Shown one piece after another: positions 1 to 3,000 of a DNA stretch of 22,701 nucleotides. The stretch is from contig DAIDHG010000013.1 of assembly GCA_027452085.1 (NCBI GenBank), positions 1-22,701 of the forward strand, written 5' to 3'. A program made the position numbers. How positions within the stretch are numbered: the first letter of the stretch is position 1; each line of letters starts with the position of its first letter. This stretch comes from a bacterium (lineage in GTDB: Bacteria; Babelota; Babeliae; Babelales; JABCYS01).

Positions 1-3000
1 CTACTGCACAGACTCACGATTGTGTTGTGAGCAAATAGTGCGATGCTGAGCAATGGGAGCAGTCTATTGCATGATGCAGCACAACCTTCTACACTTACCG
101 CCCAACAACTAAAAATTCCTTCTCGTTCTGTGTTTTGAAAAAATGCTTCTTTCACAAGATGCTCATTGCATCAAAAGATCACGGTATGAAACGAGGGGAG
201 AGCTCTGTAAAAATATATATTTGGTAATAGACCCCATGACTGGGATTTGGCAAGAATTTCTCAACATTGCAAAGCAAGAAGCTGGCAGCCAGATGGTAGA
301 AACCTGGTTGCGCGCCGTAAAGCTTGTGCAATGGAATATACACGATCAAACGGTGCTTCTTGAGGCACCAAATAGCTTTGTGCGAGAATGGCTCCAGCAA
401 CATTATTTGCCTTTCTTCGAACAGCATCTTGCGCGACTATTTAATGTTGATTCCATTACTATCGCCTTTCTTGCCCAAGACTCTGTGCAACAAACCATTC
501 GTATAAAACCTGCGGTTGCAGATGCATCAAAGCCCCATGAAGAATCTAAACAAACACATCAAACCCAACTATTCGACACGCCGCCCGAGCTCCGTCAATC
601 CAATGTAGGCAAAAGTTTTATGCCAGCATCAGCAGTTACTGGCATCGAACCACGAACTACCAGCCCAATAACCAATGTTCCAAGCCTTACCAAGAGATCG
701 ATACCAGCCGCTGCGATGGTGGGCTACAAGAGCCAAATTCAACCCTTTAATAGCGCCTTTACCTTTGATTCATTCGTGGTCGGACCAAATAATGAATTGG
801 CACACGCAGCTGCGCTTGCAGTCACGCAAGATCAAAAAGGATGTAATCCATTATTCATCTACGCACCTTCTGGATTAGGTAAAACGCATTTACTTCATGC
901 CATTGGCAACGCTTTACAAAATTCATCAGCGCGAGTTTTGTATCAAACGGCTGAGCGGTTTGTGCAGGATTACATCAACTCCATCCGCTTTGAAAAAATT
1001 CATCAATTTCAGCTTAAATACAAAGATGTAGACCTATTGCTCATTGATGATGTGCAGTTTTTATCCAATAAAGAGCAGACGCAAGAAGCTTTTTTCCATA
1101 TCTTCAATGCATTATACGACGCACAAAAGCAACTCGTATTTACCTCTGATACCTATCCCCATCAACTCAGTGGTATTGCAGATCGATTGCGCTCACGTTT
1201 TGAAAGCGGCCTCATTGTAGACATTCTTCCGCCTTCACTGGAAACGAAGGTGGCCATATTAAAGAAAAAAGCTGAGCAAAATAATGTAATCCTTCCTGAT
1301 GAGGTAGCCTTCTTTCTCGCTTCACGCAACACCGGCAATGTGCGCACGCTCGAAGGTTCGTTAATTCAGGTCATGGCCGTAGCAGCCCTGACCAAGCAAC
1401 AGGTAAACTTAGATGCGGCCAAGCGTGCGTTAATGCGCTATGGCCAGGAAAAGATTGCCAATGCCGTTAACTTTGATCGTATTGTAAAACGTGTGTGCGA
1501 ACATTACTCATATAACTTGAGCGATTTNNNNNNNNNNTCGGAAAGTAAAACGAAAGAGCTCGCGCTCGCTCGGCAAGTTGCCATGTATCTCATGAAAAAA
1601 TTAACGAGCAAATCGTTACAAGAAATTGGTTATTTCTTGGGGCGCAAAGATCATTCAACGGTGCTCCACGGATTTAATAAAATTAAGAATTGGATTGAGT
1701 CGTCTCCTGATTTCTCAGCACAACTGATGGCGTTGGAAGCAAAAATTCTGAGCTAAGAGGTATACACATCCCAATTGGCTAACTGAGCATTTTTGCGATC
1801 GCGCTTCGTTCTAAAAAAGCGGTCTTTCATACATTTGGTTGCCAATTTCTTATACCAATCAAAATAGCTGTCTACCACGAATCGTTCTTTCAATCCAACG
1901 AGCGCACGGAAATTTTCAGTATCAATGACAACCATTTTTCCAGTGTCTTCTTCGATCATGAAATTTTGCAAATGTGGGTCAATGCGGTATTGGGCAAATT
2001 GGCTCAATCTCAAACACCTTTTTGAATTTACAAAATCAAACCACGGCCTATCTTGGGCCTTGATGCAGTCAGCAATAATAGCATAGAGCCCTGGAATGGT
2101 TGTTTTATAGCCCCGATCGCAATTTCCCATATTCTTTCCCTCTACCACAAGCCAGCGCGGCTCTTGAGGCAGCCAATACCATTTCCGCGGAAAGTCGACG
2201 ACCTTTGACCAATAGGCGTCGTGCTGCACTAATTTTTGTATCTCTTCAAGGTTTTTGATTCGCGTAAAGCCAGTTAAATGGCGCATGATGCCACCGCCCA
2301 TAATAAAAAAGAAGCCTGGCTCCATGCCTTTACTAAATGGTGAAACAAAGTTTTTTGGCGTTTCAGAAAATAGTTTTACGACAAACGGATACTTTTTAAA
2401 TTTCAGCACTAAAGCCCCGCACTCATTTACGTAGCTATAATCAGTATCCTTCAGCACTTCAAAATCGGTAAAACGCTTTCTGTGTTGGGCAAGCTCTTTG
2501 AGCAAACCTTCAATGAGCTGGCTCAATATTTCACCCGGTACTGATTGCGTTGTATCACGGCGGAACGAAATGGCATGGTGCGGTAACAGATGGGTATCAA
2601 AAAACTCTTTATCGTAGGGCCGAAAAATTGGGCCGTATTCCAGGTGGGAATCTTTGAGCGTAAATTTTTTATCGGGCTCATGTTGCCAGTAGGTAGTGAT
2701 TTCGGGCACATGTACCGATGGTCGCAAAATACTTCGGTTGGCCGCTTCAAGCGGTAATGCACCAAGCAGTATTAAAAATAAGTTACTCAATCGTGCCATC
2801 ATAGTGTTTCTTCTCAAGCAGTTTGGCTGTCGTATATTTCTGACAAGTAAAGGCACTCTCATGTAACGCTCCTACAAAATACCACTCTCTTGGCTTCGAC
2901 GAGCGGGGCTCCACTCGCCTAAAAGAGTGTATTTTGCTAGTCGCTGTCTTAAGCAATACGCTGAGATAATCGAACCCCAAAATTTATGCATACTTGGCGC

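Follow-up and report, generated by a model that had tools for sequence, protein, structure and literature searches.

Locus and gene family

The window analysed here is a stretch of 22,701 nucleotides (positions 1 to 22,701 of contig DAIDHG010000013.1, assembly GCA_027452085.1). On its minus strand it carries an ORF at 1753..2862, stop included, which encodes 369 aa and is referred to below as K. The genome-wide survey's note had placed an exported, kinase-like protein at this position, and the ORF was found there as described; it is a genuine, conserved gene. Where its translation starts is uncertain: an AGGAG lies 7 nt upstream of the ATG at 2862, but the homologues start at the equivalent of Met21 or Met22 (2802 and 2799). 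If Met21 is the start, as in the homologues, the CDS would probably span 1753..2802 (minus strand; 349 aa plus stop).

K is convergent with dnaA (143..1756, plus strand; ten consecutive N at 1528-1537), and the two genes overlap by 4 nt. This tail-to-tail arrangement was constant, dnaA being the partner of K in all 21 loci compared, and in 19 of the 21 a divergent gene, c2, was found upstream of K, with hydrolases beyond dnaA. In the window, K follows genes for Amidase_3 and Peptidase_C39_2 proteins. An amidase operon was considered and rejected, as this gene order arose when the K-dnaA pair was inverted in one family (f1). Likewise, c2 was discarded as a co-distributed partner because it occurs in 253 of 261 genomes, K-negative families included; the same count served as the positive control for our profile search.

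A homology search returned 247 proteins at E ≤ 1e-3 among 1351 candidates, the same number of homologues as reported in the survey. Identity to K ranged from 39 to 78% among the 119 matches listed besides the query, none of which carries a Pfam domain, and the named ones among them are each a "hypothetical protein" of Babeliales, Babeliaceae or Dependentiae. For K itself, the survey's statement that it belongs to no Pfam or NCBIfam family was confirmed, the Pfam search giving noise only (VQ, E 0.25) and the NCBIfam search no family at E ≤ 10. PDB searches by sequence and by profile each yielded a single chance match (E 1.3 and 0.76, respectively), and PADLOC returned no match. The family appears closed, since its profile, searched against 1.84 billion cluster representatives, matches only 266 of them at E ≤ 1e-3. 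Searches of the literature on Dependentiae and Babelota kinases, on the outer membrane and on periplasmic kinases and ATP listed no paper that describes it.

None of the sequence methods used here ties K to any kinase. When 40 members were searched against Pfam at E ≤ 10, no kinase family was recovered, PF00069 (Pkinase) included, and a PF00069 search of the K-bearing genome found none. An hhalign comparison of the K family with 15 Babelota Pkinase proteins yielded a probability of 0.1%, and the K profile found nothing in single WaaP, UbiB and SrkA sequences or in one Babelota kinase. The sole hint was phrog_18305, annotated "kinase", which matched at E 0.05 exactly on K residues 294-321.

Predicted fold and catalytic residues

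The AlphaFold2 model of K was as confident as the survey had claimed (pLDDT 90.1, pTM 0.85), and Foldseek again retrieved no PDB match at E ≤ 1e-3 (best 3.1e-3). In structural alignment with VIA-align over 48,161 chains, 42 of the best 50 titles were kinases, phosphotransferases or pseudokinases (Z 5.4-8.1) and three were clear non-kinases (SbnC, AsbB and a conoid ring protein), in line with the earlier finding that nearly all neighbours are protein-kinase-like. A second structural search returned kinase-like proteins in 49 of its best 50 rows, SbnC being the exception, with MSMEG_1954-ADP as best neighbour (Z 8.3, rmsd 4.2, 157 aligned residues, 16% identity). The kinase-like rows cover model residues ~83-349 at Z 5.4-8.3 and rmsd 4-6 Å, a range in which only a common arrangement may be shared. 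Among three BFVD matches at E ≤ 1e-3, one is a named Ser/Thr kinase, and the nearest named clusters in a protein atlas are small kinases (scores 0.86-0.89), which we treat as leads only. The models thus suggest that K likely adopts a two-lobed protein-kinase-like fold, with an N-lobe formed by a beta-sheet and a helix and a helical C-lobe. K is best explained as belonging to a previously undescribed, sequence-orphan family within this fold.

According to the model and the structural searches, the protein-kinase-like core comprises residues 134-369 (1756..2463, minus strand). It is preceded by an N-terminal extension (residues 43-133; 2464..2736, minus strand) predicted to consist of a beta-hairpin, short helices and a long helix. 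Folded alone, this extension reached a pTM of 0.47 and had no structural match (best Z 2.6), and the modelling indicates that it is not an autonomous domain.

Catalytic positions were assigned by motif spacing and the order of secondary structure elements; all motifs lie on the minus strand. The equivalent of the ATP-binding beta3 lysine would be Lys163 (2374..2376) of the VVK motif in strand 160-166 of the N-lobe sheet, present in 232/232 members. DPHLQN (1963..1980) would correspond to the catalytic loop (D295 and N300 each in 231/232), and DTE (1915..1923) would supply the equivalent of the DFG aspartate (D314 and E316 each in 231/232). In the model, D295-x4-N300 lies in a loop before strand 301-304 and D314 follows strand 310-312; the D-x4-N-x13-D spacing is near-canonical, with 14 residues from N to D. 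The kinase-type Lys, Asp, Asn and Asp proposed in the survey therefore hold in 231 to 232 of the 232 members. Two further elements stand out, namely a family-specific Gly-rich/Arg loop, MGGGxxRH (residues 188-195; 2278..2301; R194 in 230/232), and a nearly invariant PRKW motif (residues 225-228; 2179..2190). An alignment of 40 K sequences contained 20 invariant columns, including G149, K163, R201, P225, K227, W228, D295, N300, E304, D314, E316 and K353, all of which had been listed as invariant before. From that same list, N204, R226 and D265 are conserved at ≥90% and are not invariant.

Some kinase hallmarks were not recovered. A GxGxxG pattern occurs in 2/232 members, G149 being the sole invariant glycine in our test for a Gly-rich loop, and no conserved alphaC Glu was seen, as E206 of the long helix that would be alphaC is present in 112/232. 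Along with the presence of MLKL and other pseudokinases among the structural neighbours, these features would suit a pseudokinase or a non-catalytic structural protein of the envelope. Both the Gly-rich loop and the Lys-Glu(alphaC) pair are missing in many atypical kinases. Pseudokinases typically lose at least one of the Lys, Asp, Asn and Asp residues, but in K all four are kept in 231-232/232 members and in the paralogue described below, and we regard a non-catalytic role as highly improbable.

Comparison with known kinase-like proteins

The best structural neighbours in both searches were UbiB/ABC1 proteins (PF03109): MSMEG_1954 (Z 8.3 and 6.9), Rv3197 (8.1) and COQ8A (6.4 and 6.0). Like K, they combine a two-lobed kinase fold with an N-terminal extension, and the Rv3197 alignment takes in the extension of K (model residues 43..327). 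A D-x-H-x-x-N catalytic-loop signature is also common to K and E. coli UbiB. UbiB proteins are better documented as ATPases than as kinases. By analogy, K could be an ATPase, and not a transferase, that handles or extracts a hydrophobic molecule (a lipid, a quinone-like or a polyprenyl compound) in an envelope devoid of LPS. However, the Z lead of these proteins over other kinases amounts to ~1-2 units only (8.3 and 8.1 versus 7.0-7.1 for the next rows). A PF03109 search of the K-bearing genome gave no match at the K locus (E ≤ 0.001), and hhalign of the K family against 17 UbiB proteins gave a probability of 0.3%, with a UbiB alignment of low diversity (relatives ≥81% identical). KxGQ, the hallmark of the UbiB/ABC1 N-terminal extension, is found in 4/232 members by chance and not in a conserved column. 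E. coli UbiB (546 aa), unlike K, has no such N-terminal signal and possesses a C-terminal membrane part; K is ~200 residues shorter and has a predicted signal peptide. A UbiB-like activity is thus a rather unlikely reading.

Other comparisons concern smaller kinases. RIO1/RIO2, Bud32 and the type III effectors OspG and NleH1 (Z 5.7-6.2) resemble K in their short C-lobe without activation segment, but they show no sequence similarity to it, are either cytoplasmic or injected, and carry no Sec signal. To this minimal plan, K adds the ~90-aa N-terminal extension and the MGGGxxRH insertion. APH(3'), APH(2''), MPH and YihE/SrkA (Z 5.7-6.3) have the same style of D-x4-N ... D-x-E motif, but no HMM of the APH/choline-kinase type matched K, hhalign with SrkA gave nothing, and the C-terminal helical substrate subdomain of these enzymes is much shorter in K. 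WaaP, of the Kdo family (PF06293), is likewise a small, envelope-related kinase (Z 6.6, rmsd 5.5, 170 aligned), but it acts at the cytoplasmic face, unlike the site proposed here for K, and no PF06293 match falls on K, which is found only in genomes without LpxC. A function as LPS kinase was rejected, as no K-positive family has LpxC and the Kdo-family matches, which are few, all fall outside K.

N-terminus and predicted export

Residues 21-42 of K, MMARLSNLFLILLGALPLEAAN (2737..2802, minus strand), form a predicted Sec signal peptide with cleavage predicted after Asn42. The call comes from our own simple statistics over 162 family members, in which a signal-peptide-like segment was found across the family, in agreement with the survey. 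The N-termini of the family agree with the usual plan of a cleavable Sec signal peptide, namely a positive n-region, an h-region of 7-15 or more residues and small residues at -1 and -3. Over the 162 members, the uncharged run has a median length of 16 (10th-90th percentile 13-21), the -1 residue is G/A/S/N/T/C in 132 and the -3 residue L/I/S/A/T/V in 118. The K N-terminus therefore resembles a Sec signal peptide of the cleavable type.

At the predicted mature N-terminus stands a family-specific motif, RSxxRP (2719..2736, minus strand; R43 in 203/232, S44 in 189/232, R47 in 206/232), preceded by a median of 22 aa in the same 162 members. Of the 2447 ORFs of the K-bearing genome, K and its paralogue are the only two with RSxxRP behind a signal-like segment; the pattern has 12 further matches, none of them in such a position, and a role as general sorting signal was discarded. 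No conserved cysteine was found in the 232 members. The motif places two conserved arginines directly after the predicted cleavage site (+1 and +5), which is atypical, and the net charges on the two flanks of the hydrophobic segment are similar (+1.4 versus +1.5). The arginine pair and the similar charges are unusual for an efficiently exported protein.

The same two features would fit a membrane-anchored kinase that faces the cytoplasm, holds an uncleaved hydrophobic anchor and, on the inner side of the membrane, phosphorylates a small molecule or a lipid-linked substrate. There ATP is certainly available, and the small-molecule and LPS kinases APH, WaaP and YihE are among the structural neighbours. 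We consider this topology improbable, since the hydrophobic run is short, the n-region positive and the -1/-3 pattern compatible with signal peptidase I, while LPS kinase function is excluded by the lack of LpxC in the K-positive families. As an analogy for an exported K, Fam20C and CotH have a kinase-like fold and a signal peptide and act outside the cytosol; neither was in the best 50 rows of any structural search, and neither is known to be related to K in sequence.

Distribution, paralogue and evolutionary rate

A profile search detected K in 179 of 261 genomes. Within the 12 positive families it was present in 178 of 189 genomes, mostly as one copy, but it was absent from nine of the 21 families (0/71 genomes). 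Hence, the survey's description of a family kept throughout the phylum does not stand, nor do its two paralogues as a family trait, as most genomes have a single match. To call K core to the parasitic lifestyle was too strong as well, since one entire deep branch, whose members are just as parasitic, lacks it. No cryptic K was found beside c2 in five K-negative genomes (best hmmsearch E 0.12). Of note, the Babelota are a phylum of intracellular parasites of protists, and K occurs in one of its two deep branches only.

The second copy in the K-bearing genome (contig C75, 777-1820, plus strand) is 34% identical to K (E 4e-51) and keeps 17 of the 20 invariant residues, including all four catalytic-type ones. 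It is a lineage-specific paralogue and adjoins a T2SSE ATPase gene.

LpxC was detected in 54 genomes, none of which has K, and in 0 of 190 genomes of K-positive families. On a one-gene (c2) tree, this distribution amounts to a single deep split, and family f6 has neither gene (0/7 and 0/7). The mutual exclusion is therefore no functional evidence, being one event on the tree with a family that lacks both, and for the same reasons we rejected the idea that K compensates for the loss of LPS.

K evolves as slowly as PGK, unlike a typical effector: mean pairwise identity was 0.38 for K, 0.39 for PGK, 0.38 for a LolCE-like permease and 0.33 for Amidase_3. Taken together, K is best explained as a single-copy, slow-evolving gene that behaves like a housekeeping gene in the deep Babelota branch without LPS.

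These data bear on whether K could be a host-directed effector kinase, which would pass the inner membrane through Sec and the outer membrane through, for instance, a type II system and would phosphorylate a conserved host protein or lipid. The predicted signal peptide, three secretin matches in the genome and the paralogue next to the T2SSE gene would agree with such a route, and Yeoh et al. (PMC4776705) report T2SS components and two gspD in all of their TM6 genomes. The minimal effector kinases OspG (Z 6.0) and NleH1 (Z 5.8) are among the structural neighbours, and other Babelota (f18) carry canonical Pkinase proteins with signal-peptide-like N-termini. Effectors, however, are usually variable in presence and fast-evolving, whereas K occurs as a single copy in nearly all members of its clade and is conserved like PGK despite the diverse hosts of the phylum. 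In addition, K has no eukaryote-like domain, and the T2SSE gene is no more than a convergent neighbour of the paralogue in a single genome. We therefore judge an effector role unlikely, if the least so of the alternatives to our preferred reading. A single copy evolving at a housekeeping rate speaks more for a function in the envelope or in physiology than for a classical effector directed at the host.

Proposed role of K

Our preferred reading, tentative and held at slightly less than an even chance, is that K is exported and active as an ATP-dependent phosphotransferase, with a conserved substrate in the envelope or the periplasm. The analyses above show the gene, its family, conservation, distribution and synteny and the predicted fold; from these we infer each of export, ATP use, phosphotransfer and substrate class. 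K would be made with a cleavable Sec signal peptide, and the mature protein of ~327 aa would begin at RSxxRP, with the N-terminal extension, which is particular to this family, packed around a minimal kinase core of two lobes. Mg-ATP would be held by Lys163 (beta3) and by Asn300 and Asp314, with Asp295 as the putative catalytic base, and the gamma-phosphate would pass to a substrate bound through R194, R201, R226, K227, W228 and K353. The basic and aromatic nature of these conserved residues suggests an anionic substrate, non-protein or envelope-borne.

The phosphotransferase so proposed would work beyond the cytoplasm, either in the periplasm or on the cell surface. ATP-dependent enzymes are normally thought impossible in the periplasm, a compartment that lacks ATP. 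At the site of K, however, ATP is plausibly present because these energy parasites import host ATP through ATP/ADP translocases; host ATP would cross the periplasm on its way to these carriers and could be available to K. In the K-bearing genome, four matches to TLC translocases pass the cut-off and represent at least three genes, and Yeoh et al. (PMC4776705) report translocases in all the TM6 genomes that they studied. A bolder version, in which K is a housekeeping periplasmic kinase or ATPase fuelled by host ATP that phosphorylates or mobilises a component of this branch's unusual outer membrane, which is free of LPS, is a speculation we hold to be unlikely.

If active, K would found a new, cleanly delimited family of kinase-like enzymes, and one of the rare cases produced with a bacterial Sec signal. 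Its single copy, good conservation and confident model make it a tractable entry point to the envelope or host biology of a phylum whose majority is uncultivated. K and the lipid A pathway are sharply separated between genomes, which provides a simple genomic marker for the two deep Babelota branches and raises the question of what takes the place of LPS-related functions in the branch without LPS. If K does use ATP in the periplasm of an energy parasite, a textbook assumption on this compartment would have to change.

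Gene K and its sequence family

The gene under study, K, is an ORF of 369 codons (1753..2862, -) convergent with dnaA (143..1756, +), with a 4-nt overlap between the two. A 10-N run inside dnaA (window 1528-1537), translated as XXXX, corresponds to an assembly gap or masked bases. K has two candidate translation starts. The ATG at 2862, from which residues are numbered here, has AGGAG 7 nt upstream, yet homologues begin at the position of Met21/22, which yields MMARLSNLFLILLGALPLEAAN and then RSILRP.

In a word-indexed search, 247 of 1351 candidate proteins matched K at E<=1e-3. 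The 119 matches listed, query excluded, share 39-78% identity with K; no precomputed Pfam domain is attached to any of them, and those with a name are few, all 'hypothetical protein' entries from Babeliales, Babeliaceae or Dependentiae. As the genome-wide survey's note had claimed, K belongs to no Pfam or NCBIfam family: Pfam returned none for K or for any of the 40 members of its alignment (A1) at E<=10, and NCBIfam, PADLOC and PDB sequences gave no match to K. The sole sequence hint was phrog_18305 'kinase' (E 0.05, not significant), on residues 294-321, the proposed catalytic segment. Searched against 1.84 billion cluster representatives, the A1 profile matched only 266 proteins at E<=1e-3, 174 of them at E<=1e-30, so the family is closed, without a twilight tail towards another family.

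Scanning one genome per species (185,579 species) yielded 119 stretches encoding a relative. Among the titles of the 80 stretches kept, 37 were Dependentiae, Babeliales, Babeliaceae, Babelota or TM6, 30 'bacterium' only, 12 Pseudomonadota or Proteobacteria and 1 Alteromonas. The last 13 are all MAG labels, and at least one 'Pseudomonadota'-titled contig coincides with a contig placed in Babelota. We found no description of the family in the literature on Babelota/Dependentiae, their envelope, or secreted or periplasmic kinases.

The genome carries a paralogue of K (C75:777-1820, +; 34% identity) that keeps 17 of the 20 residues invariant in A1, including the four of catalytic type. A second copy occurs in few genomes only, and the paralogue pair is thus not the family trait it had been taken for. 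The paralogue converges on a T2SSE gene for an ATPase of GspE/PilB type (E 8e-125; locus L002 1919-3169, -).

Predicted fold and catalytic residues

The AF2 model of K built from A1 had a pLDDT of 90.1 and a pTM of 0.85. Foldseek against PDB gave no match at E<=1e-3 (best 3.1e-3), and its list above that threshold consisted of nearly all kinases. With VIA-align, 108 of 48,161 representative chains reached Z>=5. The titles of 42 of the best 50 named a kinase, phosphotransferase or pseudokinase; three were clearly other proteins (SbnC, AsbB and a conoid ring protein), and the other five comprise Rv3197, YihE and three complexes with titles that leave the chain unnamed. When the 999 best Foldseek chains were compared again, MSMEG_1954-ADP came first (Z 8.3, rmsd 4.2, 157 aligned, 16% identity) and COQ8A reached Z 6.4. 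This would make the UbiB/ABC1 group the nearest known structure to the model, although its lead over ordinary kinases is just 1-2 Z units. Of the three BFVD matches at E<=1e-3, two come from Pithovirus and are uncharacterised, and the third is a Marseillevirus Ser/Thr kinase. In a language-model atlas the nearest named clusters, leads only, were Kinase-PolyVal (0.89), Phage_T7_kinase (0.86-0.88) and YrbL-PhoP_reg (0.88). Modelled alone, the N-terminal extension (43-136) gave a pTM of 0.47, and nothing matched it structurally (best Z 2.6). It thus probably wraps around the core instead of forming a domain.

Profile-profile comparison did not confirm homology of the K family with 15 canonical Babelota Pkinase proteins (0.1%; 23 motif-selected ORFs minus 8 false motif hits, fragments or duplicates) or with 17 closely related UbiB sequences (0.3%). 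The kinase-like fold proposed earlier is likely from the structural matches, which are mostly kinases, and is not supported at the profile level. Canonical Pkinase proteins turned up in 5 genomes of a sample of 131, chiefly in the LPS-positive family f18, where they are expanded to 3-7 per genome (L058, L061, L066, L073-L089; G163, G164, G166, G168). Several carry N-terminal signal-peptide-like segments (e.g. L078, L058). By HMM the f18 proteins show no relation to K, and they may be secreted effector kinases. In K's own genome, a weak ABC1-profile match below cut-off (21.2 bits; G000:C37:8823-8939, -) falls on the catalytic-loop positions. It lies in an open frame of 180 aa close to the end of a contig, which could be another kinase-like gene.

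Conservation was counted over 232 full-length members (320-420 aa). G149, K163 and R201 are each kept in 232/232, D295, N300, D314 and E316 each in 231/232, and the basic residues R194 and K227 in 230 and 229. In the model, K163 lies within strand 160-166, D295-x4-N300 sits in the loop joining helix 277-289 to strand 301-304, and D314 directly follows strand 310-312. As the survey's note had placed them, these residues show the predicted order and spacing of the kinase beta3 Lys, catalytic loop and DFG Asp, positions assigned from order and spacing rather than superposition, with one additional residue between Asn and Asp compared with kinase spacing. GxGxxG was present in only 2 of the 232 members, and the long helix 194-213 has no conserved Glu (E206 112/232). 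Family-specific signatures are MGGGxxRH (188-195), TRIxN (200-204), PRKW (225-228) and DTE (314-316). The near-absolute retention of the four catalytic-type residues, paralogue included, speaks against a pseudokinase and in favour of a nucleotide-dependent enzyme that is active. An anionic substrate is suggested by the clustered invariant Arg/Lys residues.

Predicted export

Among 162 members with a recognisable start, the median distance between the N-terminus and RSxxRP is 22 residues, and the longest uncharged stretch ahead of it has a median of 16 residues (10th-90th percentile 13-21). The residue before the Arg (-1) is G/A/S/N/T/C in 132 and that at -3 is L/I/S/A/T/V in 118, a pattern that fits a signal peptidase I substrate and not a 20-residue anchor. 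The conserved Arg at +1 and +5 and the similar net charge of the two flanks (+1.4 and +1.5) speak against this, but the N-terminus is most simply read as a cleavable signal peptide. RSxxRP as a general sorting tag was rejected: across 2447 ORFs of the genome, K and its paralogue are the only two in which it comes after a signal-like segment.

The usual objection to exported kinases is that ATP is absent outside the cytoplasm. This genome encodes several ATP/ADP translocases, for which the phylum is known (PMC4776705), so host ATP must pass the periplasm and the objection is weak for K.

Gene neighbourhood and functional reading

Synteny was compared over 21 loci (the window and 20 genomes, 11 families). 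dnaA lies downstream of K and convergent in all 21, directly adjacent in 12, and the divergent gene c2 lies upstream in 19. Past c2 are PGK, a LolC/E-like permease, a lipoprotein and RpiB; past dnaA, Amidase_3, Peptidase_C39_2 and NlpC/P60. The K-dnaA pair (window 143-2862) is inverted as a unit in the window and a congener (L033) relative to 19 other genomes (L034-L052), which places the amidase upstream of K there. As a whole, the neighbourhood forms a conserved block of assorted housekeeping genes near the origin and points to no pathway.

c2 (G000:C9:226-735, L035:6274-6810 and 19 other loci) encodes a cytoplasmic-looking protein of ~177 aa without a Pfam family, ending in FCPxF. The signal-peptide-bearing cell-wall hydrolase genes Amidase_3 (2984-4126, -), Peptidase_C39_2 (4151-5233, -) and a weak NlpC/P60 (5344-6591, +), clusters c3, c8 and c9, are kept beside dnaA in many Babelota genomes. 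Just past them, ORFs 6602-7180 (-) and 7191-7844 (-) are putatively assigned, via their L035 homologues, to phospholipid synthesis (CDP-alcohol phosphatidyltransferase and phosphatidylserine decarboxylase).

Over these loci K has a mean pairwise identity of 0.38, next to 0.39 in PGK; the permease and c2 also stand at 0.38, the amidase is lower (0.33) and DnaA higher (0.52). We infer all functional steps proposed for K. Because K is single-copy, is near-universal in its clade and changes as slowly as a housekeeping gene, we lean to a conserved substrate in the envelope or periplasm. With secretins in the genome, the substrate may instead be a host target.

Distribution of K and LpxC across Babelota

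The survey's note had described K as phylum-wide, which did not hold. The A1 profile (E<=1e-5) detected it in 179 of 261 Babelota genomes: twelve families account for 178 (among their 189 genomes), the genome of the window adds one, and nine families have none (0/71; f4, f6, f9, f12, f14, f15, f17 with 0/35, f18 with 0/12, and f20). LpxC was found in 54 genomes, all from K-negative families (f17 33/35, f18 10/12, f20 4/4, f4 3/3, f15 2/2, f12 1/1, f14 1/6), and in 0/190 genomes of K-positive families. No genome of the 261 has both and 28 have neither.

A sensitivity artefact was rejected as the cause of K's absence, the equally divergent c2 being found in 253/261 genomes (f17 34/35); no K-like ORF lay near c2 in five K-negative genomes. 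In a c2 tree of 24 rows (20 K-positive, 4 K-negative; the f20 locus, with no c2 ORF called, left out), the four K-negative rows (two f17, f18, f6) fall on one side of a 100/99 branch, which points to one deep split behind the K/LpxC pattern. It matches what is described in PMC4776705, where one TM6 lineage is without most LPS genes and another keeps them. We rejected this distribution as evidence for an LPS-related function: K is a clade marker of a single deep split, and f6 is missing both K and LpxC. K represents a new sequence-orphan family of known, predicted fold and unusual predicted location, confined to one deep Babelota branch, and together with LpxC it could provide a simple marker for the phylum's two envelope types.
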